64,000 bases of DNA, from contig OZ316892.1 of the NCBI GenBank assembly GCA_973895155.1, forward strand, positions 20,647,619 through 20,711,618, written 5' to 3'. A program made the translations under genes and the position numbers. Position 1 is the first letter of the stretch. Each line of letters begins with the position of its first letter. The notes beneath the pieces were generated by a model. That model worked only from the letters and a program-made list of their open reading frames with translations. It was not told where the DNA came from and did no database searches. Of the stretch, positions 25,901 through 45,115 are shown in pieces. The stretch is from Marsupella aquatica. Lineage: Eukaryota; Plantae; Marchantiophyta.

Positions 25901-26249
25901 CTTCAAATAAGCTTTGATATAGATAGAATACAATATTTTATCTGCTGTCATTTTTGCATTATTCAATGATATTAAATATCATAAATTCAAAATACTATAT
26001 ATTTGTATCTTAAAAATACTAGTCAATCATCTCCAAAATACTTGGAAACCTCCAAGATACATGGAAAAAACTAGACAAAGAACTAGTAAAAGGAGGACCA
26101 AAAACCTCCACGATACATGGAAGTAAGTTTCATGCACAAGGGCCAGGGGCTAGGACCCTTGAGTTCCCCATCACCATGTTTGCTCTACCTGGACTCAAGA
26201 GTAGCTACTCAGGCATCTCACTCACACTCAGACTCAATCACCAAGTGAG

Positions 26250-27842
26250 AACTGCAAGAGTGAGCCTTGTTCCAAGTCCATTCTTGAAGGAAATTTGTGC
26301 ACGTGACAGAGCGTGCCATTAAATATTGCGTTTATCTTGAACCATCCTGTCAAAGTGGTGTCCCTGTTCGATTCCCTTTCAACCATGTCTACGATGTCTG
26401 CATCTTCATTGAACATCATTGCCTGCTCCCTTTCACAATGCACCTTGGAGACGCTGGACATAAGTACTACTCTTTGCCATTTTAAATTGGAAAATTCGCC
26501 ACGTCGCTTCCGCCGCAGACACGTAGCGTGCATCAAGATGTGTTTTGATTTCATCCAATGACTTTCTAACTTCCATTGTTGCCTGATCATGCCCCTTATA
26601 TACATACTTGTATAAGTACTTAATCGTCTTAATGGAAATACAAATCTTCACATTAATGTGAGCATTGTATTTCATGCTCAAGTATGGGCTATAGGGAACA
26701 ACCCATCTATTGTCAAACTTAAATCCATTATTGTCATTGTTGAATGATTGGTCATTATCTCGCCTCCGATACAAAAGATAGCCTTCGTCCCCAAATTGTG
26801 TCTCTAAGAAGAATTCACGAGGATAACATTTAGTGCACTTCCCATCTTCCATGCAGGGCGAATTCAAATAACCTATGCCACATGGGCCATGGACCATGCA
26901 CTTGGTTATTGTCTCATGAAGTCGAGGATATTTTACTCTATTAGGGATCAGGGGTGGGAATCTTGTGCTGCTCTACCAAAATGATCAACATGTGGGCATG
27001 GGGCAACCCACGCTTTTGGAACTCTATGACATACATAGAGGCAATGGGCCCTCCTAAGACCCCTTGGCAAACCTATGCCAACAGCGCCCTTAGCTTTAGT
27101 TTGAATACTCACGCCACAATCTTATCCCGATCGACTGGACTTTGAATCTCAAAGCACTCATTTTGATCTCCGGCCATTCTGCATTGCAAGTGAACGTGAT
27201 GAAGAGATCTGGGGGGCCGTATGTGCATACAATAGCCATGACATCCTAGTACGCCATAAGTTGAGAGCAGAATGAAAGTTTTGCCCAACTCACTTGCGCA
27301 TGCATCTCCCTTGTGCACGGCATCCTGAAGACTCGAATAAAGGTTAGTCCGCAATTTTTGCTAATTATTGCGGATATACGTCAAGCGTGTTTGATTGATG
27401 CATGCATAGACATCAACAATGTACTGCTTGAGGAGTCGTCCACCATGAAGGAGCCAATCATCATTACATCGTGCATGAAGATGGTACGCAAAGTATTGCA
27501 GTTGGTAACCTTCTTGGACCCGTTACGCCTACTCCTTGCCCCGGTAATAGCTCAATGAAGAACTTCGTCACTCATTTCAAAATCCGTCAACGAAATATCA
27601 TATGACCGTCCGTCTTGGCCTTGCAGGAAAAGAAGAACATAGTGGAGTGGCGCATAAGACCTATGCCACTCAGAGATCCTGCGCAAATGCCCATTTGTTT
27701 GTCTAAGGATGATGTCCCTATGGCATACCTCTATATCTTTGTCACCCACCATGACAACGCCAATCTCATCGGCCATGGGCTTGTTATAACGTCTTGGAGC
27801 ATTGTCGCGCTCGGCCAGGAGGCGTAAAGATACCTCTGGCAC
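26250..27842 (-). pseudogene. Helitron RepHel, Rep (HUH/Y2) region, frameshifted
   Basis: RRYNKP..DEIGVVMVG, YAPLHYVLLF, YVIEFQKRGLPHAHMLI, MVHGPCG, YRRRD, DNRWVVPYSPYL..KYNAHINV, KYLYKYVYKGHD, ARYVSAAEATWRIF. Confidence 0.92.
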
Positions 27843-28953
27843 TGTCACTTGCCTCTCCAACGGTTAATACGTGCAAACCGCACTTTTCTTCGCTTAAACC
27901 GTTGGTATCGTATTACGGGGTCGTGGAGGGACGCTATTTGGATTCTTTTCACACCAGGATGAGTATTTTGGTTTCCGCTCCCGGAAATGTAGGTTTTGAT
28001 CAAGTCTACCGACTACCCTCACCCCACAGCTTTTGATCAAGTCCTGCCGACTACCCCACTACACCTTCACTCGGAGTCACCCAAAGAGTGCTGTCACCAC
28101 CCCTACTCACAAGGCCGACTCAAACCAAGCAAGTTTCTTCAAATCATAGAACGGGAGAACACAATTCGGAAAGCGAAAAAGGGAGAAGGAACACACAACA
28201 AAAGCCCATCAAGTCAAATGTACAGATCCATATCTCTTGGGAAAAACGATACACATTGCATGAGTAACCCGGCCTCCTGCCGTCTACTCAACTCCTGCCT
28301 CTCCGGACAATGAGTATGGCTCCCCCTCACTACTCTGAACACGCTTTCAAACTCCTCAGGCTCCACTCTATCCCTCCTTGCTAACTTCACACTGAGTCCC
28401 CCTAACTACTTCGGGGCTATCCCCCTAAATACTGAAAAATCACACCAAAGCACCCCTCACAGGGTCACAACGGTGGCGGCTACCCTAGCGGCGCCGCTAA
28501 AACCTTGCACTAAGAGAAATCCTTAAACTGAAGAGGAGCATGCGGCACACACATGCTGCTAAAACCCTAAACCCAAAACAAGGGGGCCGACGGTGCCTTC
28601 GACGGCGCCCCAACAGTACACGTGAACCCTGAAAGTGAGAGGCACCCCAAAATGGCCGAAACTAGGTGCCCTTCCAAGTGCACACCTGAGCTCACCCCTG
28701 GATAGCTCTTCTTTTCCTGCTTCCGAATCACTAAGTCGCTCCCTCAACGGACTTCAGACGCCTGAGTTATGGCCGTTTCCGTACCGCAAAAACATAAGTT
28801 CTCCAGGCCATAACTTGCTCATCCTGGCTCCGTTTGAGGAGCGCCGCCTCTTGTTGGAATCAGCTCCGCGAGCTCATCCCAACAAGCCCATGAGTGACCC
28901 CCCACTAAAATGTTGGAAATCTGGAGGCCGTACACCCACGTCCGTACGCCTAT

Positions 28954-30810
28954 CTAATCCTCCTCTTCTTCTTCGCTCTCGGTGCCCGGACTTGTGCCCC
29001 GTGAGTGGTCCTCCTCCTCATCACTCACGGGAGTGAGTGCCACCGTACTTTTCTTCTTCTTCGACGGAGTACTCTTAGTGCTGCTGCTCCCGCGCTTCCT
29101 CAAAGCAGCCAAGGCCTGCCACGCCTTGATGTACCCCTCACCAATTGTGTCCTTCCAGAGGGTAGCCTCTTCTCCGGACCGCAACTCCAACGGTAGAACT
29201 TGCCCCGTGGCCATGGGAGTCCCGGGGGTGACAGACCTGGGTGGCATCCCCGTACTGACCTGAGCCTCCCGTAACGATTTCCGTACCTCCCGGAGCTTCT
29301 TCTCCAAGCTCTTACTCTTCTCCTGACTCTTCTTGGCTCCATCCAACAAGGGTCCATACTTCCCACTAACCTCCTTCACCACCATCTCGATAGCTTGGGA
29401 GATCACATCCGGGGAAAGTGTGGAGCCAGGTGTGCCGGGACTCTTCCGTTTCCCTAGACTCAGGGCCTCACTTCTCTTCGCTCGTGTCTCAAAGGCTGCC
29501 ACCTGACTCCGTAGTGCTCCCACCTGGTTCCTCCACTCCATCACTTCTCCAGAATTTTGCTTCTCTTTGGCCAATGCTTGCCTCAACGCTCCTACTTCTT
29601 CTGCTTCCTTGGCCTTGGTGGACAAAGCTCCCTTCAAGTTGGTGATCTCTACGTGAGCTGCATTGATGTGCCTGACCTTCTCATGAATGGTCTGCTCCTT
29701 GGTCTTGATCACCTCCTTCAGTGACAGGATGCTCTGCTCTAACGTCTCTACTTTGACTGTGGCGTGCTTGAGAGACTCCCTCAATGCGTGGACTAGCTTG
29801 AGTCCCTCGTGGACTCCCTCTCTGAAATCCCGTAGCTCTGCCAAGTAAACATCCGGAATGTTGTATTCCAGAGGCTGTTTCGGATCTCCCACGAGTGATT
29901 CAAGCCACTCCAATGTGCAATCATCCTCCTGGTTCTCTTCTTCTCTATTATCCTCCCCACCAGCAGACAATGATTCCTCCGTGAGCTTCCCTAAAACGGT
30001 AGTGGTAATACTCCGGATCTCCGTGGTGAGAGATGATCCCGTGTCTTCATGCCCCGGAGAACCAATCAACCCTTCTGCCCTGGCCAATACAAATGACCCC
30101 ATCAAATGTACAGCCCCACCTGGTTTCACACTCCCGGGCTCAGCGGCCAATAGCTTCTTCAATCCGTAGCACCACCATCCGTACACATGGGCTGGGTAGT
30201 TCTTGATGTCCATAGCTACCACGAAATGCTCCTCATTCAGCACTCCGGATTGCACGTTGCCAAGAACCCGTTGATGCACCTTGGCCAGGAAGCCCTTATA
30301 CTCAACATCCTTGACAGCAGAAAGAGGGATGGCGGTGGTGGAGGTAGGATTGGTCACCCAAGTGGCCACCATTTTCAACGTGAGTTCTCCCCTGATATTC
30401 CGAGGTGTGAATGAGAATTTCTGATTCTCAAGAAACAATAGCTTAGCCAACTCCACATGGGGCACTACACGTTTGAGACATTCAAAGTAGATTCCCTCCG
30501 TTCGGAACTCCATCCCGGCCTCAATGTCCCAGCTCTTCCCTGAAGGGATGGTAATCTCCACCTTCATGAATTCTGTAAGCCCGGTGGCTTGGAAAATGTT
30601 CCGACAATCCTCCATCACCTTGGTGGAGGTCTTGGGATAAATTCGACGAAAAATCTTCCTACCCACCGGTGAGGAACCCGCTGCCAATCCCGTGCTCATC
30701 ATAACTTCTCTCTCTTCCCTTTCCCGTGTAATCCGAGTCTCCACGTAGTCACGGTAAGCAGCCTTGTATCTCCGAATGCGTGACGCACTAAACTCTGGTT
30801 GATCTAGCAT
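28954..30810 (-). CDS. LTR-encoded 618-aa protein of unknown function (3' LTR copy): globular N-terminus, acidic linker, long coiled coil, basic NLS-like motifs, acidic tail
   Basis: 1857-bp uninterrupted ORF wholly inside the LTR, same sense as gag-pol; heptad-like E/K/L-rich run, KRK and KKKK motifs, EEEEED end. Confidence 0.88.
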   Translation of the reverse strand: MLDQPEFSASRIRRYKAAYRDYVETRITREREEREVMMSTGLAAGSSPVGRKIFRRIYPKTSTKVMEDCRNIFQATGLTEFMKVEITIPSGKSWDIEAGMEFRTEGIYFECLKRVVPHVELAKLLFLENQKFSFTPRNIRGELTLKMVATWVTNPTSTTAIPLSAVKDVEYKGFLAKVHQRVLGNVQSGVLNEEHFVVAMDIKNYPAHVYGWWCYGLKKLLAAEPGSVKPGGAVHLMGSFVLARAEGLIGSPGHEDTGSSLTTEIRSITTTVLGKLTEESLSAGGEDNREEENQEDDCTLEWLESLVGDPKQPLEYNIPDVYLAELRDFREGVHEGLKLVHALRESLKHATVKVETLEQSILSLKEVIKTKEQTIHEKVRHINAAHVEITNLKGALSTKAKEAEEVGALRQALAKEKQNSGEVMEWRNQVGALRSQVAAFETRAKRSEALSLGKRKSPGTPGSTLSPDVISQAIEMVVKEVSGKYGPLLDGAKKSQEKSKSLEKKLREVRKSLREAQVSTGMPPRSVTPGTPMATGQVLPLELRSGEEATLWKDTIGEGYIKAWQALAALRKRGSSSTKSTPSKKKKSTVALTPVSDEEEDHSRGTSPGTESEEEEED

Positions 30811-31241
30811 CCATGCATCCCGAAATCAATTTCTCAATCACCAATCCCGTCACCCGTGGCAATGTCAATTCCCTGGCCCGAAACAGCCCCCGTAGCCCGA
30901 TCACTTAAATTCTCTCAATTTCCCGTCACTACTCCGTGCGGCCGCCACTAATGCCTGGAAGAATGACGCCAGCAAGCCCCACTAATCCACCATGAAAGAG
31001 AGAGCTTCAAAAATAATTAGAATCTGGAGAGAGCTTCCGGCAAGAGAGAGAAGAACCCCGTTTTTGCTTTCGGCAATGAGAGGGTCGTGCAAAAGGAAGA
31101 GGGAAAGAAAAAGGAAGGAAAAAAAAATAGAACCGAAAAAACTCCTGGCGCCTTCGCCATGCGCCCCGGCCCATTTCTCGGGCCTTACCCTTGCGTCCTC
31201 CTGCGCGCGGCCCTATGCAGGGCGCGCGGCCATTCCTCCCG

Positions 31242-31604
31242 GCTCGCGGGAGGCCCTTCAACTCCCCCCCGCTCGCGTGATCCTCCCAGCTCGCGGGAGG
31301 CCCTTTAACTCCCCCCCGCTCGCGTGATCCTCCCAGCTCGCGGGAGGCCCTTTAACTCCCCCCCGCTCGCGTGATCCTCCCAGCTCGCGGGAGGCCCTTT
31401 AACTCCCCCCCGCTCGCGTGATCCTCCCAGCTCGCGGGAGGCCCTTTAACTCCCCCCCCCCGCTCGCTTGCGCTCCTTCAGCTCGCGGAGCCTCATTAAT
31501 TGCCCGGGCACGCAGCCCTATGGGCTCGCGAGGCAGCCCCTTCAGCTCGCGGAGCCCCATTAATCGCCCGGGCACGCAGCCCTATGGGCTCGCGAGGCAG
31601 CCCC
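31242..31604. repeat. CpG-rich tandem arrays in the LTR: 47-bp x ~4.7 and 64-bp x 2
   Basis: 47-bp units start at 31242, 31289, 31336, 31383, 31430; 64-bp units share GCTCGCGGAG at 31481 and 31545. Confidence 0.95.
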
Positions 31605-31932
31605 TCTTTCTCTCGGACGGCCACTAATGGGACTCGCCCTCCTGAGGAGGGATTTATTTAAAAAAAAACCCCCCCCCTCTCCTGACTTTGCAATGGGGGT
31701 CTCAACAATAGCTCTTGAAGCAAAACGGTAAGTCCTATGGGGCTGGTCCTGGCTAGTTTCAAGGTCCCAAAATATTTGCCCACTTAGGTCGCCGCAAATC
31801 TTAGAACTATTATGAGAGAAAGAATATAAAGTCACCTGGGGCATCATCAACCTATAATGACGGAATTAACTAAAAATTAAAAAATGGCTTATTTACATTG
31901 ACTATTAACAAGGTATCGGCCTTTGCAACCAG

Positions 31933-34900
31933 TTATGTGTGACTTCCCGTGACGGGGTACCCGTCACATAGCTCCTCTCTTAATTGCGAAGCGCCCCCGC
32001 GAGCACCATACTCTTCCTCCGTGTAGTACTTCTTTAGGCGCTCTTGATTGATCCGTGTGTTGAGTAGTTGCCCCTCCAATGTCTTGAGTTGAACCGAGCC
32101 GTTGGAGTAGACGGCATCCACTACGTAGGGTCCCATCCACCGTGTATGCAACTTCCCGGGGAAATGCATGAAGCGGCTATCGTAGAGGAGCACCAAATCT
32201 CCCTCCTCAATGGACACACGACGGAGACGGGAATCGTAATGTGACTTGCGTTTGCCTTGCTCCTGCTCCGTATGTGTCAAAGCCTCTTCTCGTGTCTCCG
32301 TGAGTTGCTCCAACTGTTGGATCCGTGAAGCGACACTTTCTTCTGCCCCTTCCCTTTCCCGTGTTAGGATTCGAATGGTTGGAACCTCAAATTCCACCGG
32401 CACAAGAGAGTGTTGTCCAAACACAAGGAAATAGGGGCTGTGGCCCGTGGTAGTCTTGTGAGCCAGGTTGTAAGCGTAAGTGGCAGCCAACAACTTCAAA
32501 TCCCAATCGGTCTTGTGAGCGGATACCGTTTTGTTGAGGATCTTGCCCATGATCCCGTTGGCTCTCTCAGTGAGCCCGTTGGCTCGAGGGTGGTACGGAG
32601 TGGTCTTCCTATGTGAGATCAAGTAGTTCTCCGTCAAACGTTCAATCGTATGATTGAGGAAGTGAGTACCCCTGTCACTTACCAACTCCAATGGTGGACC
32701 AAATCGTGTAAAAATCTGCTCATACAAAAAACGTGCCGTGGTGTTGGCATCATCCTTGGCAGTAGCTCGGGCCTCCACCCACTTGGTGGCATAGTCCGTT
32801 GCAAGAATGATGTAGCGCTTCCTCCCTCTTCGTGTGATGGGAGTGAAAGGGCCAATGAAGTCCACCCCCCACTTCTCAAAGGGTGCAAGAGGAAGTATGG
32901 GCACCAATGGGTGTCGTGAGGAGGGCCCTGGTTTGCCTTGACGCTGGCACGGATCACATCGCTGGATGTACCGGTGTACATCCCGAAAGAGAGTTGGCCA
33001 CCAATATCCAGCATCTAGTATTTTCCTTGCGGTGGTCTCCCGTGCAAAGTGGCCACCAGCTTCCTCCTCATGTAATGCTGCCATGACTGTACGTATCTCC
33101 GCTTCCTCCAAACAACGACGAAGTCGGCCATCCATGCCGTACTTGTGAAGTACTCCCTTCACAAGCAAGTAGGGACCTGTCTTACGCAAAAACACTGCTG
33201 CTCTCTCCGGGCCCAAACGTGAGGGAACTCTAGCCGTGCGGAGAAATTCCAAAATTTCTCCATACCAAGTAGTGGCCTCTGTATTCACGCTGAACACTTC
33301 CTCATCCGGGAACCGATCATCAATCTCCTGGGAGTCAGATGCTCCCTCAATACGGGAGAAGAAGTCTGCATTGCTATGACTCTTCCCCGATCTTACTCTC
33401 ACCTCATAGTTGAACTCTTGTAGCAACAAAACCCAACGTGCAATTCTCCCGGACAGATCTGGCTTGTTGACCATGTATTTCAAGCTGTTGTGATCCGTGT
33501 GGAACACAACCTTGTACCCCAACAAATAATGACGATACTTCTTACAAGCGTAGATGATACCAAGTGCCTCCCTATCGGTGGGTGAGTAGTTTTTCTCTGC
33601 CGGGGCCAACTGCCTACTGGCAAAGTAGATGGGATGGTCTCTTCCATCATCATCTAACTGACTCAAAACGGCACCGATGCAAAATCCTGATACGTCTACG
33701 TAAACATGGAATTCCTTATTCCAATTGGGCGTAATGAGCACGGGGGCCTCTAGCAATCGTTTCTTCAATTCATCAAAAGCAGCCTGACGGGAAGGAGTAG
33801 GTTCAAACTCACTTCCTTTTTTCAACATGGAAGTGAGTGGCATGGCTACCTTGGCAAAGTCTTTGATGAAGCGTCGGTAGTAGCCAACACACCCCAAGAA
33901 CCCTCTCACTTCCTTCACATTCTTGGGAAATGAGACTGCTACCCACACGGCGACCTTCTCACGATCAACTTCAATCCCTCGTGCAGACACTTTGTGGCCC
34001 AATAGGATTCCCTCCTCAATTCCAAAGAAACATTTCTCCGGATGCAGCTTCAGGCAAGTCTCCCGGCACCGCTGAAAAGTCAACCGTAAGTGTTCCGGAT
34101 GCTTGACTCGTTTGCCGTAGACAGCAAAGTCATCAATAAAGATCTCCAAGAACCTGCGTAAAAAGTCATGAAATATATTCATCATGAGCCGTTGGAACAT
34201 GCCAGGGGCATTGCACAACCCAAAAGGCATTCTCCGGAATGCAAAAATCCCCCACTCTGTTGTGAAAGCCGTCTTGAGTTGGTCCTCCTCCCGTATCCAG
34301 ATTTGGTTGTACCCAGAGTAGCCATCCAAGAAGCTGTATATCTCCCAACCTGCTACCATGTCCAACACGATATCCGTGAACGGTAGCGGGTAGTGATCCT
34401 TCTTGGTCGCATCATTCAACTTTCGAAAATCTTGGCACACCCGTATTTTCACCTTCCCGTCTGGCCCCTTTTTCTTGGGCACGATTACGATGGGTGACAC
34501 CCACTCACTATGCATGACCGGATAAATGAATCCTGCATCCAACAAACGGTCAATCTCCTCCTTCACCATGAGTGAGTATTTGGGGTTGAGGCGGTATTGG
34601 CGTTGCCTCACAGGTCGTGCTCCTGACATCAGGTCAATGCTGTGCTCACCAAACTCAGGTGGCACTCCTTTCAAATCTTGGTGGCTCCACGCAAATACGT
34701 CTTGGTACTCTTTCAACAATTCCTGAATCGTGCGTTGCTCCGTAGCATCCAACTTACTACCAATGTTGAGTGTCTTGCCCTCACCCACTTCCACCTTTGT
34801 GTACTGCTCCGGCCTGATCACGTCCAACTTGTTGCGTGTCTCCTCATCAAAGGTTTCTTCCAACAGTGCGAGCCTCATCCCTCCATACACCGGTGCATCA

Positions 34901-37900
34901 CTCTCCTCCTGGTCTGGTCGGGATGGAGGTGGATCCTTTGTCACATGGGCCATTATTTCTTCAACGTCAGATTCTTTGTAATGTGACAATAGCTCCTCTC
35001 TAAAGTCATCATCCAGGATGTCATTCAAAAACTGCTCTCTTTGCTCATCATCAAACATGATCGTGTGGGCTTGCATTTCCACCTCCTCGGGGTGATCCTC
35101 TGCCTCCCTATCATGAATCTCTAGAGGTTCAGCCTCCACAATTTTGCTTCGCTCGTCTTCCATCTCTTCTAGAACAGCGTGCACTTGGCTAACTGATTCC
35201 TCTACTGCATGCTCTTGAGTAGCAACTCCGGGGCCAAAAACATCTTCCTCCGTGAGGTGAGAAATCAGTTTCACCATGTATACTTCATCCTCGTCTTCAT
35301 CTGAGGTGACCTCTGAATCATATTCCTCCTCCATAGTCGTAGTCTCCCCGTGAGGTGACTCCGCTGACCATGGAATAGTGATAGTGGGGATACCAAACCG
35401 AAACTGCCGTTTGCCCCAATCACTTGTGACCTTGGCCACATACAACCATGGCCTGCCAATTAAAATGGGAAAACCGTACGGCCGAACGGGTCGCATCACC
35501 AAATAGTTGAGGGGGAAAGATTTTCCCCCAATCATTGTTGGAATCTTGGTGAGACACCCCAACGGCACCACCCGTGCACCATCAGCCAACCTCATGGCAC
35601 GTGCCGGTGGTTCTAACTCTGTATACCCCAACCGGTTTGCCGTCTCCTCAGTCATGATGTTGACTCCCGAGCCCCCGTCCACCGGTACAAACCGTATTGC
35701 ACATCCATTGATGTCCACCGTGAGTTCTGGGGCACCCAAATCCTCCGTGACCCAGTTGACTTGTATGGGGTCAGCCCCAACTTTGGGTAACCTTCTTCTA
35801 CGTCTCCTCCTCATGAGAATCTCCTTGACTTGGCGACGGTATAGGGAGCTATCCCGTAATAGTTGACCAATTGTGGCACTGACTGGGCAATCCAGAATGT
35901 CTTGAGCAATGTTGTACGCGGTTGCAGGAGGTATGGGTGGGATGACCTCTTCTCCCGGTTTCCAACGAACAACCCTCTCCTCCGCTTTCTTTCTGGCCTT
36001 TGCCTCCTCCATGTCTTTGTCAATGGCCGCTTGCATGGCTTGTGCTTCTAGCTCCTCCAACTGCTTACGTACCTCTTCTCCCACCTTCGGATAGAACAAC
36101 TTGGGGTTGTCCCGATCAAAGTCACTATCCTCCATGGGTGGCACCTCCGGTTCGTGTGAGGTACCCGATGTGGAAGCTTGATGCACCTCCTTGTACTTCT
36201 GCTTGAGCTCGGACTTGCCCTTCTTTTTGCCGGATCGAGTGGAGACTCGGTAACAAGAGTAATGCCTTCTCTCCTCGTCGCTGTCTTCCTCCGGTAGATT
36301 CTCAGCATGAGTCCACTCATGACTTGGGGGTGAGGGGTTAGCAACTTCAACTTCCGTAGATGTTGCAACAACAACCACCGGTATCTCAACAACTGGAGAT
36401 ACTACAACGACTAGCGGTACCACCTCCTCCGTTATGGTGGTCATCCTTTGCTTGGGAATGTTCACTACGGTTTCTTCTCTTCTAGTGATTAGAGGGGTGT
36501 CGACTGCTTCCGTGGTGAGAAAGTTGACGCTAGCTTCTTTCAGAGGAGGTGGCGGCCCCTTCTTCTCTTGTGCCCCAATCGGTTGAGCCTTGAACGCCTC
36601 CAAGGTTGGGCAGTGTGGTGCAAGATGACCCTCCCCCTTGCATAGTTGACACAGCCGGGCAAAATCTCCATTGCCTTGACGGGTGGGCTCTGGGCACACA
36701 TTAGCGTAGTGGCCCGCCACTCTACAATTGTAACAAATAGGGATCTTCCTCACTCCAGGGTACGGTGGTCGATTCCCTGGGTTAGCGTTGGGATAGTTGG
36801 AGTATGCGGGTGCTCCGGCGTTTGTTGAAACTCCATGAATGCTCCGTGGTCCCGGGTTGAGAGGTTGTACACTATACACGTTGGCCTCTGGTGGCTCCTC
36901 CATGAAGTACTCTATTGGCCCTTCCGCTGCATATGAAGGATTTGAGTAGCTTGCCCCCTCAACATCCTCCTCCCGTACTTGGAAAACCTTGGCTGGTTCT
37001 CCCGCTGGGCACTCCTTCGGGGCATGACCAAACTTCATGCACTTGGTGCACCACACATTGGCTCTCTCCACCGGAACTTTTCTCCTCTCAGGTTTGAGTC
37101 CGGCAAAATGTACTTTCAACGCTTTCATTTGCTCCGTCAGCTCATCATATCTGGCCTCTTGCTCCTTCAGGCGTCTTGCCGTAGACAATGGTGTAACGGC
37201 CACCGTGGGTAGTATCACTTCACGGTGAGAGGACTTCTTGACTTTCTTTGACAACTTCTTCTTCTTCCTCCTTCGTCTTTCAGCTTCTGACTCCGTAGTG
37301 TCTGACTCTGTAGTACTCTCAGAATCCTCAGATTCATCACTACTATCTGAATCAGATCCACTCGACTCCTCACTGGAGGAACTGTCAACCGGCTTCAGCT
37401 TCTTTCTTCGGCAACGCTTGCTTGTGGCATCAGCTGCGGTGTATGACTCCGCTGCTGCAATAGCTTCAGCCAATGTGGTTGGCTTGGCTTGACGTACAAA
37501 GAACCCCATCTTGCTTGGTAGGGCAGCCACAAACCAGGCTTGACGCATAGCATCATCGGTACGGGCTTGGATCCGACGTACCAGCTTTTGGAACCTTTGC
37601 AAAAACCTCCGTAATGACTCCTTCTTCTTCATCCTGAGTTGGCCCACCTTTAATAGTGAGGTGGCCTCCACTCCTATGGATCTGAACTCCTTCAAGAAGG
37701 CTTGCTTGAACAGAGCCCAATCAGCTTTCACGTTGGCCAACAACGAAATGAACCATGGACCTGCCTCCCCTCTCATCATTCCAGGAATGATAGTGAGCTT
37801 ATGTGCAGACTCCCCATTAGCTTCGGCAATCCCTTCAAACTCCTCAATCCATTCGTCTGGATCATCCTTTGGTCTCCCCTTGAAGGGTACGTACTGAACA

Positions 37901-38331
37901 CGGGTACGTTGTGCAGCTGCCATCGGTGCAGCCGGTGCCTGTATCAACACAGGTGGTAATGGCGCTTGTTGGGCCACCGGTAACAGCACCGATGATAGGT
38001 GTGAGATGATTTGTGGCAATGCAGTGAGCTCTGGGATCAGATTTTGTAACTCAGACTGCACCAACACAAAGGGCTCTCCTTCTTCTCGCTCGTGATCTAT
38101 GTCTGGCTCTTCGTCTGGGCATATGGCCTCATTACGTTGAGCCTCTTCCTGTTGCACACCAACTTGTTCTTCCAGCACCAGTGGCAACCTCCTCTCTTCT
38201 GCAAGCCGTAAGCGTTCTTCGGCAGCAACTCGTCGTCTGGTCCCAATCCAAGAGGGCCCCCCTTCTAGCTCTGATCTTGGGGTACGTGTGTGTTGGGGAC
38301 TTCCTCTACCTCCCCTTCTCCCTCTCGGCAT
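31933..38331 (-). CDS. Gag-Pol polyprotein, 2132 aa, single frame
   Basis: Retrotransposon gag, three CCHC knuckles, protease VDGGSG, RT FIDD, RNase H (YVD/DREAL/TDH), integrase HHCC + D,D,E and WMGPY. Confidence 0.98.
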   Translation of the reverse strand: MPRGRRGGRGSPQHTRTPRSELEGGPSWIGTRRRVAAEERLRLAEERRLPLVLEEQVGVQQEEAQRNEAICPDEEPDIDHEREEGEPFVLVQSELQNLIPELTALPQIISHLSSVLLPVAQQAPLPPVLIQAPAAPMAAAQRTRVQYVPFKGRPKDDPDEWIEEFEGIAEANGESAHKLTIIPGMMRGEAGPWFISLLANVKADWALFKQAFLKEFRSIGVEATSLLKVGQLRMKKKESLRRFLQRFQKLVRRIQARTDDAMRQAWFVAALPSKMGFFVRQAKPTTLAEAIAAAESYTAADATSKRCRRKKLKPVDSSSSEESSGSDSDSSDESEDSESTTESDTTESEAERRRRKKKKLSKKVKKSSHREVILPTVAVTPLSTARRLKEQEARYDELTEQMKALKVHFAGLKPERRKVPVERANVWCTKCMKFGHAPKECPAGEPAKVFQVREEDVEGASYSNPSYAAEGPIEYFMEEPPEANVYSVQPLNPGPRSIHGVSTNAGAPAYSNYPNANPGNRPPYPGVRKIPICYNCRVAGHYANVCPEPTRQGNGDFARLCQLCKGEGHLAPHCPTLEAFKAQPIGAQEKKGPPPPLKEASVNFLTTEAVDTPLITRREETVVNIPKQRMTTITEEVVPLVVVVSPVVEIPVVVVATSTEVEVANPSPPSHEWTHAENLPEEDSDEERRHYSCYRVSTRSGKKKGKSELKQKYKEVHQASTSGTSHEPEVPPMEDSDFDRDNPKLFYPKVGEEVRKQLEELEAQAMQAAIDKDMEEAKARKKAEERVVRWKPGEEVIPPIPPATAYNIAQDILDCPVSATIGQLLRDSSLYRRQVKEILMRRRRRRRLPKVGADPIQVNWVTEDLGAPELTVDINGCAIRFVPVDGGSGVNIMTEETANRLGYTELEPPARAMRLADGARVVPLGCLTKIPTMIGGKSFPLNYLVMRPVRPYGFPILIGRPWLYVAKVTSDWGKRQFRFGIPTITIPWSAESPHGETTTMEEEYDSEVTSDEDEDEVYMVKLISHLTEEDVFGPGVATQEHAVEESVSQVHAVLEEMEDERSKIVEAEPLEIHDREAEDHPEEVEMQAHTIMFDDEQREQFLNDILDDDFREELLSHYKESDVEEIMAHVTKDPPPSRPDQEESDAPVYGGMRLALLEETFDEETRNKLDVIRPEQYTKVEVGEGKTLNIGSKLDATEQRTIQELLKEYQDVFAWSHQDLKGVPPEFGEHSIDLMSGARPVRQRQYRLNPKYSLMVKEEIDRLLDAGFIYPVMHSEWVSPIVIVPKKKGPDGKVKIRVCQDFRKLNDATKKDHYPLPFTDIVLDMVAGWEIYSFLDGYSGYNQIWIREEDQLKTAFTTEWGIFAFRRMPFGLCNAPGMFQRLMMNIFHDFLRRFLEIFIDDFAVYGKRVKHPEHLRLTFQRCRETCLKLHPEKCFFGIEEGILLGHKVSARGIEVDREKVAVWVAVSFPKNVKEVRGFLGCVGYYRRFIKDFAKVAMPLTSMLKKGSEFEPTPSRQAAFDELKKRLLEAPVLITPNWNKEFHVYVDVSGFCIGAVLSQLDDDGRDHPIYFASRQLAPAEKNYSPTDREALGIIYACKKYRHYLLGYKVVFHTDHNSLKYMVNKPDLSGRIARWVLLLQEFNYEVRVRSGKSHSNADFFSRIEGASDSQEIDDRFPDEEVFSVNTEATTWYGEILEFLRTARVPSRLGPERAAVFLRKTGPYLLVKGVLHKYGMDGRLRRCLEEAEIRTVMAALHEEEAGGHFARETTARKILDAGYWWPTLFRDVHRYIQRCDPCQRQGKPGPSSRHPLVPILPLAPFEKWGVDFIGPFTPITRRGRKRYIILATDYATKWVEARATAKDDANTTARFLYEQIFTRFGPPLELVSDRGTHFLNHTIERLTENYLISHRKTTPYHPRANGLTERANGIMGKILNKTVSAHKTDWDLKLLAATYAYNLAHKTTTGHSPYFLVFGQHSLVPVEFEVPTIRILTREREGAEESVASRIQQLEQLTETREEALTHTEQEQGKRKSHYDSRLRRVSIEEGDLVLLYDSRFMHFPGKLHTRWMGPYVVDAVYSNGSVQLKTLEGQLLNTRINQERLKKYYTEEEYGARGGASQLREELCDGYPVTGSHT
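31969..31980 (-). promoter_or_regulatory. Polypurine tract AGAGAGGAGCTA
   Basis: Abuts the TG of the 3' LTR; resembles the sister element's PPT GAGAGGGGAGCTA. Confidence 0.85.
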
Positions 38332-38548
38332 CCCATTGAGACCTGCATTCCAAACTTACACCAATGTCTCAGAAAGCAATATTTGTAAACATCAACCGTC
38401 GCACGATGCGTTGTGGTTGACGTACAATAACAAAGTAACCAACAAACTTCTCACGTATCAACCGTCGCAAGTTGCGTTGTGGTTGATAGGTTTGAACTCC
38501 CAATAGACGTAGCTCCCCTCCTTCGTGTCGTCAAACAAGAAGAAGGAT

Positions 38549-38566
38549 TCCCCGGCAGCGGCGCCA
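38549..38566 (-). promoter_or_regulatory. Primer-binding site TGGCGCCGCTGCCGGGGA (tRNA-Asp type)
   Basis: One mismatch to the Athila-type PBS TGGCGCCGTTGCCGGGGA complementary to the plant tRNA-Asp 3' end; 20 nt from the 5' LTR. Confidence 0.85.
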
Positions 38567-39697
38567 AAAACAAAAGACCACACTTATGTCACTTGCCTCT
38601 CCAACGGTTAATACGTGCAAACCGCACTTTTCTTCGCTTAAACCGTTGGTATCGTATTACGGGGTCGTGGAGGGACGCTATTTGGATTCTTTTCACACCA
38701 GGATGAGTATTTTGGTTTCCGCTCCCGGAAATGTAGGTTTTGATCAAGTCTACCGACTACCCTCACCCCACAGCTTTTGATCAAGTCCTGCCGACTACCC
38801 CACTACACCTTCACTCGGAGTCACCCAAAGAGTGCTGTCACCACCCCTACTCACAAGGCCGACTCAAACCAAGCAAGTTTCTTCAAATCATAGAACGGGA
38901 GAACACAATTCGGAAAGCGAAAAAGGGAGAAGGAACACACAACAAAAGCCCATCAAGTCAAATGTACAGATCCATATCTCTTGGGAAAAACGATACACAT
39001 TGCATGAGTAACCCGGCCTCCTGCCGTCTACTCAACTCCTGCCTCTCCGGACAATGAGTATGGCTCCCCCTCACTACTCTGAACACGCTTTCAAACTCCT
39101 CAGGCTCCACTCTATCCCTCCTTGCTAACTTCACACTGAGTCCCCCTAACTACTTCGGGGCTATCCCCCTAAATACTGAAAAATCACACCAAAGCACCCC
39201 TCACAGGGTCACAACGGTGGCGGCTACCCTAGCGGCGCCGCTAAAACCTTGCACTAAGAGAAATCCTTAAACTGAAGAGGAGCATGCGGCACACACATGC
39301 TGCTAAAACCCTAAACCCAAAACAAGGGGGCCGACGGTGCCTTCGACGGCGCCCCAACAGTACACGTGAACCCTGAAAGTGAGAGGCACCCCAAAATGGC
39401 CGAAACTAGGTGCCCTTCCAAGTGCACACCTGAGCTCACCCCTGGATAGCTCTTCTTTTCCTGCTTCCGAATCACTAAGTCGCTCCCTCAACGGACTTCA
39501 GACGCCTGAGTTATGGCCGTTTCCGTACCGCAAAAACATAAGTTCTCCAGGCCATAACTTGCTCATCCTGGCTCCGTTTGAGGAGCGCCGCCTCTTGTTG
39601 GAATCAGCTCCGCGAGCTCATCCCAACAAGCCCATGAGTGACCCCCCACTAAAATGTTGGAAATCTGGAGGCCGTACACCCACGTCCGTACGCCTAT

Positions 39698-41554
39698 CTA
39701 ATCCTCCTCTTCTTCTTCGCTCTCGGTGCCCGGACTTGTGCCCCGTGAGTGGTCCTCCTCCTCATCACTCACGGGAGTGAGTGCCACCGTACTTTTCTTC
39801 TTCTTCGACGGAGTACTCTTAGTGCTGCTGCTCCCGCGCTTCCTCAAAGCAGCCAAGGCCTGCCACGCCTTGATGTACCCCTCACCAATTGTGTCCTTCC
39901 AGAGGGTAGCCTCTTCTCCGGACCGCAACTCCAACGGTAGAACTTGCCCCGTGGCCATGGGAGTCCCGGGGGTGACAGACCTGGGTGGCATCCCCGTACT
40001 GACCTGAGCCTCCCGTAACGATTTCCGTACCTCCCGGAGCTTCTTCTCCAAGCTCTTACTCTTCTCCTGACTCTTCTTGGCTCCATCCAACAAGGGTCCA
40101 TACTTCCCACTAACCTCCTTCACCACCATCTCGATAGCTTGGGAGATCACATCCGGGGAAAGTGTGGAGCCAGGTGTGCCGGGACTCTTCCGTTTCCCTA
40201 GACTCAGGGCCTCACTTCTCTTCGCTCGTGTCTCAAAGGCTGCCACCTGACTCCGTAGTGCTCCCACCTGGTTCCTCCACTCCATCACTTCTCCAGAATT
40301 TTGCTTCTCTTTGGCCAATGCTTGCCTCAACGCTCCTACTTCTTCTGCTTCCTTGGCCTTGGTGGACAAAGCTCCCTTCAAGTTGGTGATCTCTACGTGA
40401 GCTGCATTGATGTGCCTGACCTTCTCATGAATGGTCTGCTCCTTGGTCTTGATCACCTCCTTCAGTGACAGGATGCTCTGCTCTAACGTCTCTACTTTGA
40501 CTGTGGCGTGCTTGAGAGACTCCCTCAATGCGTGGACTAGCTTGAGTCCCTCGTGGACTCCCTCTCTGAAATCCCGTAGCTCTGCCAAGTAAACATCCGG
40601 AATGTTGTATTCCAGAGGCTGTTTCGGATCTCCCACGAGTGATTCAAGCCACTCCAATGTGCAATCATCCTCCTGGTTCTCTTCTTCTCTATTATCCTCC
40701 CCACCAGCAGACAATGATTCCTCCGTGAGCTTCCCTAAAACGGTAGTGGCAATACTCCGGATCTCCGTGGTGAGAGATGATCCCGTGTCTTCATGCCCCG
40801 GAGAACCAATCAACCCTTCTGCCCTGGCCAATACAAATGACCCCATCAAATGTACAGCCCCACCTGGTTTCACACTCCCGGGCTCAGCGGCCAATAGCTT
40901 CTTCAATCCGTAGCACCACCATCCGTACACATGGGCTGGGTAGTTCTTGATGTCCATAGCTACCACGAAATGCTCCTCATTCAGCACTCCGGATTGCACG
41001 TTGCCAAGAACCCGTTGATGCACCTTGGCCAGGAAGCCCTTATACTCAACATCCTTGACAGCAGAAAGAGGGATGGCGGTGGTGGAGGTAGGATTGGTCA
41101 CCCAAGTGGCCACCATTTTCAACGTGAGTTCTCCCCTGATATTCCGAGGTGTGAATGAGAATTTCTGATTCTCAAGAAACAATAGCTTAGCCAACTCCAC
41201 ATGGGGCACTACACGTTTGAGACATTCAAAGTAGATTCCCTCCGTTCGGAACTCCATCCCGGCCTCAATGTCCCAGCTCTTCCCTGAAGGGATGGTAATC
41301 TCCACCTTCATGAATTCTGTAAGCCCGGTGGCTTGGAAAATGTTCCGACAATCCTCCATCACCTTGGTGGAGGTCTTGGGATAAATTCGACGAAAAATCT
41401 TCCTACCCACCGGTGAGGAACCCGCTGCCAATCCCGTGCTCATCATAACTTCTCTCTCTTCCCTTTCCCGTGTAATCCGAGTCTCCACGTAGTCACGGTA
41501 AGCAGCCTTGTATCTCCGAATGCGTGACGCACTAAACTCTGGTTGATCTAGCAT
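39698..41554 (-). CDS. LTR-encoded 618-aa protein (5' LTR copy)
   Basis: Identical to 28954-30810 except one Thr/Ala change (30006 vs 40750). Confidence 0.88.
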   Translation of the reverse strand: MLDQPEFSASRIRRYKAAYRDYVETRITREREEREVMMSTGLAAGSSPVGRKIFRRIYPKTSTKVMEDCRNIFQATGLTEFMKVEITIPSGKSWDIEAGMEFRTEGIYFECLKRVVPHVELAKLLFLENQKFSFTPRNIRGELTLKMVATWVTNPTSTTAIPLSAVKDVEYKGFLAKVHQRVLGNVQSGVLNEEHFVVAMDIKNYPAHVYGWWCYGLKKLLAAEPGSVKPGGAVHLMGSFVLARAEGLIGSPGHEDTGSSLTTEIRSIATTVLGKLTEESLSAGGEDNREEENQEDDCTLEWLESLVGDPKQPLEYNIPDVYLAELRDFREGVHEGLKLVHALRESLKHATVKVETLEQSILSLKEVIKTKEQTIHEKVRHINAAHVEITNLKGALSTKAKEAEEVGALRQALAKEKQNSGEVMEWRNQVGALRSQVAAFETRAKRSEALSLGKRKSPGTPGSTLSPDVISQAIEMVVKEVSGKYGPLLDGAKKSQEKSKSLEKKLREVRKSLREAQVSTGMPPRSVTPGTPMATGQVLPLELRSGEEATLWKDTIGEGYIKAWQALAALRKRGSSSTKSTPSKKKKSTVALTPVSDEEEDHSRGTSPGTESEEEEED

Positions 41555-41985
41555 CCATGCATCCCGAAATCAATTTCTCAATCACCAATCCCGTCACCCG
41601 TGGCAATGTCAATTCCCTGGCCCGAAACAGCCCCCGTAGCCCGATCACTTAAATTCTCTCAATTTCCCGTCACTACTCCGTGCGGCCGCCACTAATGCCT
41701 GGAAGAATGACGCCAGCAAGCCCCACTAATCCACCATGAAAGAGAGAGCTTCAAAAATAATTAGAATCTGGAGAGAGCTTCCGGCAAGAGAGAGAAGAAC
41801 CCCATTTTTGCTTTCGGCAATGAGAGGGTCGTGCAAAAGGAAGAGGGAAAGAAAAAGGAAGGAAAAAAAAATAGAACCGAAAAAACTCCTGGCGCCTTCG
41901 CCATGCGCCCCGGCCCATTTCTCGGGCCTTACCCTTGCGTCCTCCTGCGCGCGGCCCTATGCAGGGCGCGCGGCCATTCCTCCCG

Positions 41986-42348
41986 GCTCGCGGGAGGCCC
42001 TTCAACTCCCCCCCGCTCGCGTGATCCTCCCAGCTCGCGGGAGGCCCTTTAACTCCCCCCCGCTCGCGTGATCCTCCCAGCTCGCGGGAGGCCCTTTAAC
42101 TCCCCCCCGCTCGCGTGATCCTCCCAGCTCGCGGGAGGCCCTTTAACTCCCCCCCGCTCGCGTGATCCTCCCAGCTCGCGGGAGGCCCTTTAACTCCCCC
42201 CCCCCGCTCGCTTGCGCTCCTTCAGCTCGCGGAGCCTCATTAATTGCCCGGGCACGCAGCCCTATGGGCTCGCGAGGCAGCCCCTTCAGCTCGCGGAGCC
42301 CCATTAATCGCCCGGGCACGCAGCCCTATGGGCTCGCGAGGCAGCCCC
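41986..42348. repeat. CpG-rich 47-bp and 64-bp tandem arrays (5' LTR copy)
   Basis: Same arrays as 31242-31604, shifted by 10744 bp. Confidence 0.95.
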
Positions 42349-42711
42349 TCTTTCTCTCGGACGGCCACTAATGGGACTCGCCCTCCTGAGGAGGGATTTA
42401 TTTAAAAAAAAACCCCCCCCTCTCCTGACTTTGCAATGGGGGTCTCAACAATAGCTCTTGAAGCAAAACGGTAAGTCCTATGGGGCTGGTCCTGGCTAGT
42501 TTCAAGGTCCCAAAATATTTGCCCACTTAGGTCGCCGCAAATCTTAGAACTATTATGAGAGAAAGAATATAAAGTCACCTGGGGCATCATCAACCTATAA
42601 TGACGGAATTAACTAAAAATTAAAAAATGGCTTATTTACATTGACTATTAACAAGGTATCGGCCTTTGCAACCAGTTATGTGTGACTTCCCGTGACGGGG
42701 TACCCGTCACA

Positions 42712-44204
42712 GGCACATCGCCCCCCTCGATCCAACTTCCCACATTCTTAAATAGATGAACATATCCATTATGTTTGTGCAACATGTCTTGCAGTTGAGC
42801 CAGTATCCTTGGATCCAAGTGCGGCATTCGGTTGAGCCTACAACAAAAGCAATTAGAACCACTCAGGTTGGAGATATATGAAAATGTACCTAAGCAAGAC
42901 GGGAGAGCAAGTGGTCATGGGATTGGGAAATGTACCTATTCCCCACTTCATTGGCGTTTTTATAAATGTATAATTGCGCAAATTTGGGCCCTTCTCCTAT
43001 AGGGGGCAAAAGGCAAGATGGTACAACTCTCCTTGGATACAAAAGGAATAAGGTCCCCGACTATTATTGGGCTCATACACTTTTTCATCAATGGAGGTAA
43101 ACGCCAAGGCATTGTTATAACCTTTTATGTTCTCGCGGAAATTCTTCGCAACATTGTCTTGCCTTGTAAGCAAGCTTTGTAGAGGCTCACGGGGGCACCA
43201 AAAGGAGGCAATTTCACCTTGCCGTTCGCACAACAGGCACTATAAAGGGGATTCTTTTCTTCAGTGCCCTTTTTGCATTCTTAAAGCCAATGAAGTGCCC
43301 CACATGTGCGGCAAACCATGTCCATGCCCCAAACAATGTCGGGCCAAGTGAGGATCCAACGGTCTTCGAGCCTTTGGAAGATGACTGATTAGTTGTGCCC
43401 TCCATCTTCGTCGCGCTATTTCTTCTTTGCTCCGCAGCGCATGTGTGACTGGTGCAGTTGCCAAACTCTCATGGACTTCAGACGAAACATCGGGCCCTAC
43501 ATCCAGTTCATTTTCTCCACTTGACAACTCCAAGGTCCCCTTGACAAAAGTGTCAAATTCACCATCCCCATCGTTGACATAATCTTCCTCTATATCATAT
43601 AATTCCCCCACCGCATGTTGATCAAAACTGCCATCCATTGCCCCATTGATGAGTCACTCCTCATCAAACAAATAAGTTTGAGTGTGAGCGTGCATCGATT
43701 CCTCCAACGGACAATCAATCCCCCCATCATCCAACGCCCCATTGATAAGCCACTCCTCATCATAGACGCCTCATAGGACGTGTTGGAGGCTAACTCCAAT
43801 GGAGGATGTTGAATCCCACTTTCATCCAAAGCACCTTGAATGAGCCATCCTTCATCAAATACATGTGGGTCACAGGGAACCATGGGTTGGTGGACCAATG
43901 TGCTTGGATCACCAACACTAATATTGGAAATGGCATGGGGTCTTTCCAATGCTTGCCCTTGGCCCTGAGTCTCGCGACGAAATTGTCTCCCACTATTCAT
44001 CCGTGTAACCAAGTTTGGTTGAGCGCTCGCTTCTGCCCAAACCCCTTCAATTGGAGCCCCAACAGCCTCTCCATTATTTCCAACCACCCCATTTTGTTGT
44101 TGCCGACGCTGCGTTTGGCTCTCCCGACGCCTTTCATTAATGGTGTCTTTGTCTTTGGCGTACCTCTCATGCCGAGCTGCCAATACCTGGTTGGGAGGAG
44201 GCAT
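42712..44204 (-). pseudogene. Helitron RepHel N-terminal part (Zn-finger-like region), frameshifted, with one intron
   Basis: PHMWG/CGALHW-like and SACC..GEI remnants, FRENIKGYNNALAFTSI, GPYSFCIQGELYH, LDPRILAQLQDMLHKHNGYV; joins in frame across the TSD (GGDVP|EVSLRL); GT-AG intron at 42935-42838. Confidence 0.85.
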
Positions 44205-44554
44205 ATTGGCTTCGGTACCCTCAACAAAATAAAGCCCTAATTACTTCATGCTCCCGCCCATAGGCCGTTGTCTACATCCAACGCACATATATTGTTTGTC
44301 ATTCAAATTTAAATTAGTCATTCAAATTTGCATGCCCCATTCCAAGCTTGACAGACCCTAAGTAAGTTGAACACCGATTGGAGGATAGCATTGCAAGAGA
44401 CATGGGATATTAAAAGCGGGATTAGAATTAAGGAGCCCAATATCCGTCAAAGATACATCCTATAAGGGCTCCCTCATCCCACCCACCCACCCAATCTTGG
44501 CGACGTTCATCCTGCTTCTAGGAGTTGTGCCTCTTGCCCCTAAATTAACCTTTG

Positions 44555-45115
44555 CTTACTTGGCTTTGGCCGCCCCTATGCCGAGACCCCTTGGGGCAAC
44601 GACACGGCTTGGTCGACTTTTCAACTAAACATTTTGTCACTCCTTGCATCCAGGAACCGGCTCTATTGGTAACCCCAAAGTTTTGGTGACGTAAAGTTGT
44701 TTAACTGAAAGTCACCATGGCTGCTGACTTGGCTTTGGCCGCCCCAATGCCAAGTCCCCTTGGGGCAATGGCACGGCTTGGCCAACTTTTCAACGGGCCT
44801 TTTCCTACTCCTTGCATCCTCCAACCCCATTGGTAACCCCAGATTTCTGGTTACTTTAAGTGTTTCACTTAAAGTCGTCGTGATCGCTTACTTGGCTTTG
44901 GCCGCCCCAGTGCCGACACCCCTTGGGGCAACGACACGGCTTGGCCAACTTTTCAACGGGCCTTTCTCCTACTCCTTGCATCCCCCAACCCCATTGGTAA
45001 CCCCAGATTTCTGGTTACTTTAAGTGTTTCACTTAAAGTCACCGCGACCGCTTACTTGGCTTTGCTGCCCCAATGCCAAGACCCCTTACGGTAACGGCAC
45101 GGCTTGGCCTTCAGC
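44555..45115. repeat. ~165-bp tandem repeat, about 3.5 copies, in the Helitron 5' region
   Basis: CTTACTTGGCTTTGGCCGCCCC..CCCCTTGGGGCAACGACACGGCTTGG recurs at ~44555, 44724, 44887, 45051. Confidence 0.85.

Follow-up and report, generated by a model that had tools for sequence, protein, structure and literature searches.

A 64,000-nt stretch of DNA from the liverwort Marsupella aquatica (GenBank assembly GCA_973895155.1, contig OZ316892.1, positions 20,647,619 to 20,711,618 of the forward strand; the window hereafter) contains a Ty3/gypsy retrotransposon in which a complete open reading frame (ORF) of 618 codons, very probably a functional gene, lies inside each of the two 4.1-kb long terminal repeats (LTRs). 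The element is on the minus strand and the right-hand repeat is therefore its 5' LTR (Table 1). The LTR coordinates of the original prediction, which had been made from the letters of the window, were exact, and the TG..CA ends, the polypurine tract (PPT), the primer binding site (PBS) as well as the GGCAC target site duplication (TSD) on which they had been based were all recovered. The intact ORF also lies wholly within each LTR and in the sense of gag-pol, as had been claimed, starting at LTR nt 1158 in the 5' copy (1159 in the 3' copy) and stopping 1111 nt short of the LTR end. The two LTRs differ by two substitutions (30006/40750 and 31060/41804) and by a 1-nt indel (31669). The extra base at 31669 is missing from the contigs of two public sequencing runs (X1 and X2) at that site, so it is either private to the present copy or an assembly slip. 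With two substitutions per 4.1-kb LTR, the element is intact and very young, that is, recently inserted. Self-comparison revealed no shorter terminal repeat within the 4.1-kb LTR, which rules out a tandem of small LTR elements or of LTR-ORF-LTR sub-elements. The PBS-like motif is presumably of the tRNA-Asp/Athila type. The 20-nt gap between this motif and the LTR end (38566-38587) implies either that the integrase trims a long extension or that priming is unusual.

The ORF is regarded as a real gene because its length exceeds anything obtained in simulation, its codon use resembles that of gag-pol and homologues exist at 28-59% identity. The stop-free frame spans 623 codons, compared to a maximum of 312 and a mean of 162 in 500 third-order Markov simulations of the LTR. 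When scored by gag-pol codon frequencies, the ORF reached 0.077, while the highest of 1000 shuffles was 0.030, the other five frames ranged from -0.134 to 0.023 and the non-coding parts of the LTR from -0.035 to 0.035. Additionally, synonymous codon use in the ORF correlates with that of gag-pol (r 0.72). A HMMER scan with the first 255 residues of the protein found six relatives, at 30-59% identity, in 1.84 billion representatives; five are short fragments, one of which has the same Met as its start. The sixth, a 596-aa protein of Calypogeia fissa (CAM6083533.1), is 28% identical over 189 aa (pairwise E 1e-19), shows a second, weak match reaching into the coiled coil, and led in turn to a second protein of the same species (CAM6092599.1). 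Nothing was returned by word-indexed searches for homologues, whether the whole protein or alignment A1 served as query, and a metagenome scan with the ORF yielded no relative. The two ORF proteins are identical except for Ala/Thr 269. Two points count against the explanation favoured below: the sole substitution between the LTRs that falls within the ORF is non-synonymous, and the Calypogeia homologues are known here as protein sequences. Since the ORF is whole in both LTRs, it is copied into both at each replication, which supports the earlier claim that the accessory gene is duplicated in every replication cycle.

The layout of the wider family was analyzed using public runs. Six of them, none recorded as RNA, contain the LTR, five with half or more of its words, and four (X1, X2, X3 and X6) were mapped on 31500-41830, a range that omits most of the upstream part of the 5' LTR. 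Depth ratios were computed from those of the listed contigs (32 of ~5700 pieces) that have 0-1 substitutions, one X1 contig with 87 differences and one X2 contig with 45 having been dropped. LTR pieces were found at 2.19 times the gag-pol depth in X1 (two LTR versus five internal pieces, none in the ORF) and at 2.17 times in X2 (four LTR versus three internal pieces). Furthermore, three X2 contigs in or overlapping the ORF stood at 2.22 times the depth of three gag-pol contigs, a ratio that comes from one run and is subject to the caveat that contig depth is no copy number. Summed depth bins, in which diverged relatives are included, put the ORF at 3.1 times the internal region in X1 and at 1.56 times in X2; these figures are unreliable, and X3 and X6 were uninformative. 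The contig ratios suggest that two ORF copies per element, and few solo LTRs, are the rule across the whole young subfamily. A depth of ~2.2 in two runs leaves room for about one solo LTR per five full elements of this young subfamily, while older ones may differ. The original prediction had also proposed that solo LTRs could supply the protein in trans; a large pool of such LTRs is made less credible by the LTR to internal depth. Runs under three organism codes hold 74-93% of the LTR words, with contigs of 0 differences in each of the three that were mapped; this sharing could reflect the same species relabelled, close species or transfer.

The same runs bear on two other explanations. It is extremely improbable that misassembly, or a segmental duplication surrounding a smaller element, accounts for the long repeats. 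No single contig of the mapped runs spans the element, but the TSD on both sides, the TG..CA ends, the PBS-like motif and the purine tract all sit at the repeat boundaries, the LTR copies differ at three places, a run contig stops exactly at the LTR edge (31968) and the LTR pieces have about 2.2 times the internal depth in two runs. The ORF could also be a passenger, for instance a host gene captured not long ago or a nested element, copied along with the LTR and still undecayed; we consider this very improbable. The element is so young (two substitutions in 4.1 kb) that one intact frame proves little, and the relatives are known as proteins; yet codon use follows that of gag-pol, no internal unit flanked by a TSD or by terminal repeats is seen in the LTR, and relatives at 28-59% identity keep the same domain order. 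In addition, the predicted fold group of the protein, described below, is typical of the extra ORFs of retrotransposons (PMC6317226). Finally, among the 12 best-supported of 95 indel rows only one lies inside the ORF, and it is an in-frame insertion of 3 nt; eight rows of a frame-breaking size are located in the non-coding tail of the LTR.

Table 1. Features of the element and its insertion site (positions are those of the window).
Feature	Position	Strand	Remarks
5' LTR, TG..CA	38587..42711	-	4125 nt
3' LTR, TG..CA	27843..31968	-	4126 nt; 3 differences from 5' LTR
Target site duplication GGCAC, left	27838..27842	.	
Target site duplication GGCAC, right	42712..42716	.	
618-aa accessory ORF, 5' LTR copy	39698..41554	-	
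618-aa accessory ORF, 3' LTR copy	28954..30810	-	one residue differs
N-terminal globular domain, ~aa 55-245	40820..41392	-	predicted Athila-ORF1/Transposase_32/PMD/DUF1985-type fold, via Calypogeia homologue
Predicted coiled coil, ~aa 325-445	40220..40582	-	weak matches to many coiled-coil families, all below cut-offs
Two basic clusters 10 residues apart, then acidic tail	39794..39844	-	
GC-rich tandem array upstream of ORF, 5' LTR	41978..42349	-	47-nt unit x4.8, 64-nt unit x2; CGCGAG-rich
Matching tandem array, 3' LTR	31234..31605	-	
Inverted pair of 10-nt motif past ORF stop	39509..39559	.	also 28765-28815
gag-pol, single 2132-aa ORF	31933..38331	-	GAG, zinc knuckles, PR, RT, RH, INT (Pfam)
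PBS-like motif	38550..38566	-	20-nt spacer from 5' LTR end
Polypurine tract abutting 3' LTR, within pol end	31969..31981	-	

Regarding the protein, predicted models place its N-terminal domain, with good probability, in the Athila-ORF1/Transposase_32/PMD/DUF1985 (VANC) fold group. The domain of the window protein itself gave weak leads in the ESM Atlas to Athila ORF1 and Transposase_32 clusters (0.82-0.83). In the comparison of the Atlas model of the Calypogeia homologue (residues 8-205) with plant clusters, where the models were predicted on both sides and every row was marked 'under the bar: name no family', the template modelling (TM) score was 0.68 for PF20167 (186 residues aligned), 0.69 for PF03078, 0.65 for PF10536 (PMD) and 0.59 for PF09331 (DUF1985), eight of the ten rows having TM of at least 0.59 and the range being 0.59-0.69 over 169-186 residues; the resemblance is therefore at the level of fold, not of family membership. 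Besides these limits, several results weigh against the assignment. Pfam has no family that matches this N-terminal domain, whether in the window protein or in its relatives, neither of which reached the cut-off with the PF03078, PF20167, PF10536 or PF09331 profiles, the Atlas model of the whole Calypogeia homologue has a predicted TM of 0.30, the AlphaFold models of the window protein are poor (predicted local distance difference test 42 and 44), and the assignment as a whole depends on a homologue with 28% identity and on predicted models. Fold searches with the poor AlphaFold models (viral, PDB and wide PDB) gave no credible match, the best Z being 5.4 and in the range of helical noise, and are uninformative on the fold; a sequence search of the PDB returned one match (E 1.2).

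The two basic clusters towards the C terminus are a likely bipartite nuclear localisation signal (NLS). No transmembrane stretch was found (the maximum 19-residue Kyte-Doolittle mean is 1.09), which rules out an env-like identity, and this together with two basic clusters before an acidic tail suggests that the protein is likely nuclear. The best reading is that this would be a known kind of plant accessory gene in an unusual place; as extra ORFs of this fold group are already common in Athila, Ogre and Retand elements, the novelty would be one of position and not of kind. The original prediction had set the gene beside the U3-encoded proteins of retroviruses; the protein, predicted to belong to a plant extra-ORF fold group, would not be an unknown retrovirus-like factor.

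Upstream of the ORF, the tandem array and a CT-rich zone make up the most promoter-like part of the LTR. Within the LTR and the internal region, 15 of the 17 copies of CGCGAG fall in this 430-nt repeat zone, across both unit types, compared to 0.18 copies per kb elsewhere in the window; CGCGAG was picked after the repeats had been seen and any tandem array multiplies its words, so that the enrichment is suggestive only. Other motifs of the LTR include a telobox-like word, antisense, at 39313, downstream of the ORF, and GTGACGGG, which occurs at the start of the LTR and two times in the leader of the ORF.

The position of the ORF relative to the U3, R and U5 parts of the LTR was also considered. 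A location in U3 is modestly favoured, while R and U5, taken singly, are both unlikely. Three points favour U3: as pol terminates within the 3' LTR, the element has no internal 3' region; an RNA with its start upstream of the ORF would have to pass the ORF and then the 15 ATGs found between the ORF stop and gag; and a crude scan between 39272 and gag detected no pyrimidine-rich acceptor. On the other side, there is no TATA consensus near either of the promoters proposed below, and the LTR has a single AATAAA, located upstream of the ORF at LTR nt 310, in keeping with a U5 placement; both count against our preference. An arrangement with the ORF in R or U5 is possible, if less probable, in which a promoter near the 5' end of the LTR would give an RNA carrying the ORF ahead of gag-pol, the latter being reached by splicing. 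The AATAAA lies in an AT-rich segment formed by the first 330 nt, a possible 3' untranslated region of gag-pol, a consensus-like splice donor is found at 41933, the most promoter-like zone of the LTR is upstream of the ORF, and extra ORFs at the 5' side have been recorded for Tekay, Ogre and TatII elements (PMC6317226 supplement). Nevertheless, the donor's nearest acceptors (41768-41699) precede the ORF, none that is pyrimidine-rich turned up near gag in the crude scan, 15 ATGs are located between the ORF stop and gag, and an R of ~3 kb would probably require a very long strong-stop DNA. With the ORF in U5, a solo LTR would give no properly terminated message.

The explanation that we favour as a whole, to which we give about an even chance, is that of an Athila-like element with a gene in each LTR whose product is a nuclear protein of PMD/VANC-type fold that binds the element's own repeats and counters silencing. 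According to this, a 3' accessory cassette of Athila type, composed of repeats, its own promoter and the ORF, would have been incorporated into U3 as plus-strand priming shifted to a purine tract where pol ends, and everything behind pol would consequently have been duplicated. The ORF would have a promoter to itself, located at the repeat and CT-rich zone, and genomic RNA would start at another one within the final 1.1 kb of the LTR, with a poly(A) site common to both RNAs; each LTR, solo ones included, could then be a complete transcription unit. As for function, the N-terminal domain would bind a short motif multiplied in the array, the coiled coil would dimerise the protein, and family members might in this way be kept free of repressive chromatin both in cis and in trans. 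VANC proteins have been reported to bind short motifs multiplied in tandem repeats of their own transposon and to remove silencing in a sequence-specific manner (PMC5735166), and PMD to resemble the DUF1985 domain of VANC (bioRxiv 2024.09.27.615353, bioRxiv 2024.04.02.587720). By this analogy, an anti-silencing role is tentatively the most likely one, with other nuclear roles close behind. It has to be set against this that a shared fold in itself indicates no function and that the function of the PMD and Athila ORFs borne by retrotransposons is itself unproven (PMC5418596).

Alternatively, the ORF could encode a real accessory factor with another role, such as anchoring the integration complex on chromatin, mediating nuclear import or serving as a structural partner within the particle, the array being an enhancer only. 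This is a possibility, although not a probable one. It agrees with the NLS-like cluster and the coiled coil, with an integrase that has no chromodomain, and with the nuclear import or regulatory roles proposed for the extra ORFs of Grande, Retand and PvRetro13 (PMC7264820); moreover, host PMD proteins act via partners, direct DNA binding not having been demonstrated yet (bioRxiv 2024.09.27.615353). In contrast, VANC, the only function-tested transposon-encoded member found in the fold group, is a sequence-specific anti-silencing factor (PMC5735166), and an array beside the gene is the layout that a VANC-like system would show. Within the anti-silencing explanation, the most novel version is that the LTR is a self-contained module, doubled at every replication, with a promoter, a DNA-binding protein of VANC/PMD fold, its target array and a terminator, such that even a solo LTR would keep a derepressing gene; we regard it as unlikely.

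With respect to its lineage, the single gag-pol frame shows the gypsy domain order GAG-PR-RT-RH-INT (capsid, protease, reverse transcriptase, RNase H and integrase) by Pfam and extends 36 nt into the 3' LTR. No Pfam match to a chromodomain or to a second or additional RNase H (aRH) was obtained in gag-pol; the RNase H retains the acidic residues in all four of its motifs, about 100 aa separate RH from INT and about 65 aa follow the GPY motif. In the REXdb table, Athila is described by a 5-bp TSD and a single GAG-PROT-RT-RH-INT frame without extra RNase H or chromodomain (PMC6317226 supplement MOESM5), and the element matches this row on the TSD, the single polyprotein frame and the absent extra domains. 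The typical Athila site of the extra ORF, between pol and the 3' LTR, is not the one found here, where the ORF is inside the LTR and pol enters the 3' LTR; that site is a common Athila trait and no strict criterion. Phygy and Selgy, lineages with a tRNA-Trp or tRNA-Ala PBS, were ruled out by their TSD, 4 bp in the same table (PMC6317226 supplement) versus 5 bp here. Tat Z1/Z2 lineages without aRH are present in liverworts (PMC10508981), and the absent aRH together with an intact RH is also consistent with them, the comparison being one of traits. We therefore describe the element as a non-chromovirus Ty3/gypsy element, Athila-like by traits, which may instead belong to Tat Z1/Z2. Metagenome and viral scans with RT-INT gave five distant or partial metagenome loci and no viral locus, and tblastn detected no relative of the LTR ORF in those five. 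One of them (L001:2-7153) is a distant gypsy relative, 47% identical in its best segment, with a frame of 2383 codons; inspected by eye, it appears to contain two integrase zinc-binding segments and, behind the integrase, a second protease-like motif. In the window itself, a second, decayed gypsy RT-RNase H is found at 16392-17912 (+), with 71-73% DNA identity to the RT region of the element.

Other features were observed around the insertion. A Ty1/copia element at 45789-51286 (+) has LTRs of ~300 nt, 98% identical over the aligned 300 nt, frames broken by stops and a PBS motif that is presumably of Met type. Left of the insertion, broken frames at 26234-26972 (-) resemble remains of a Helitron Rep; no Pfam match supported this. 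The window also includes an Agenet-domain ORF at 57158-58288 (+; E 1.7e-07), tandem arrays at 44554-45109 and 53392-54609 (163-nt units and 84/104-nt units) and a fragment of a coiled-coil ORF at 60590-61072 (-), for which tblastn showed no similarity to the LTR protein or to relatives of this protein.

In plant retrotransposons the LTRs are regarded as non-coding DNA and reviews place the extra ORFs internally, so that a gene such as the present one is masked or overlooked. In the review of additional ORFs, these are assigned to the internal region (PMC7264820). No precedent for a protein gene inside the LTR of a plant retrotransposon was found in the literature searched, which consisted mostly of abstracts, and subscription papers and the large REXdb supplements may differ; PMC2410132, PMC12885004, PMC5418596 and PMC11728184 provided background and no such case. 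With a whole gene inside it, a solo LTR becomes something different. In addition, a predicted PMD/VANC-type fold beside a motif-rich array offers a direct test of the role played by extra ORFs in Athila, Ogre and Retand elements, and the same test addresses whether retrotransposons carry sequence-specific anti-silencing factors, with the protein, its candidate target and the reporter within one 4-kb piece of an intact and very young element. The published PMD phylogeny covers angiosperms (PMC5418596), and a retrotransposon member from a liverwort would bear on whether PMD originated in retrotransposons or in host genes. If the LTR were in fact a self-contained module, the host's main route of retrotransposon deletion would leave behind a working gene that derepresses the family in trans; it would be, in the literature searched, the first case of a plant retrotransposon with a sequence-specific anti-silencing system, and the fold group of transposon proteins would be extended to liverworts.

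Among known systems, Athila elements with an extra 3' ORF (PF03078/PF20167, 'env-like') share with the present one the 5-bp TSD, the single frame, the lack of an extra RNase H or chromodomain, a sense accessory ORF with the same predicted fold and, presumably, an Athila-type PBS. They differ in that the ORF is here inside the LTR, and hence present twice, instead of between pol and the PPT, in that no internal 3' region exists, and in that the protein has no transmembrane stretch, is below Pfam detection and comes from a liverwort host. The 'env' ORFs of Athila have been reported to be under purifying selection (PMC2410132), and domains of this fold group to be the commonest recognisable ones in the extra ORFs of Ogre, Retand and Athila (PMC6317226). 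Ogre (PMD, pfam10536) and Retand/Grande/RIRE2 (Transposase_28) resemble the element in a related predicted domain, a coiled coil, a likely nuclear protein, neighbouring tandem repeats and, as a group, LTRs of up to ~5 kb (PMC6317226, PMC7264820). Their ORFs, however, are internal, mostly antisense and accompanied by an extra RNase H, whereas here the ORF is sense and internal to the LTR and no extra RNase H is found. VANC of the VANDAL MuDR transposons (DUF1985) is similar in its predicted fold (TM 0.59 via the homologue) and in a motif multiplied in tandem repeats of non-coding DNA, but VANDALs are DNA transposons of eudicots, there is no detectable sequence similarity, and the present system is known from sequence alone. 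Regarding the position of the gene, sag of mouse mammary tumour virus (MMTV) is likewise a whole protein gene in the LTR, in U3, and therefore in both LTRs (PMC12548423), although MMTV is a vertebrate retrovirus, the protein is unrelated and the U3 placement, known there, is here only inferred. The plant retroelement Cassandra, a terminal-repeat retrotransposon in miniature (TRIM), also carries a unit with a promoter in both LTRs, derived from 5S rRNA and with Pol III promoter boxes (PMC12486564); there, the unit is a non-coding RNA in a short, non-autonomous element.

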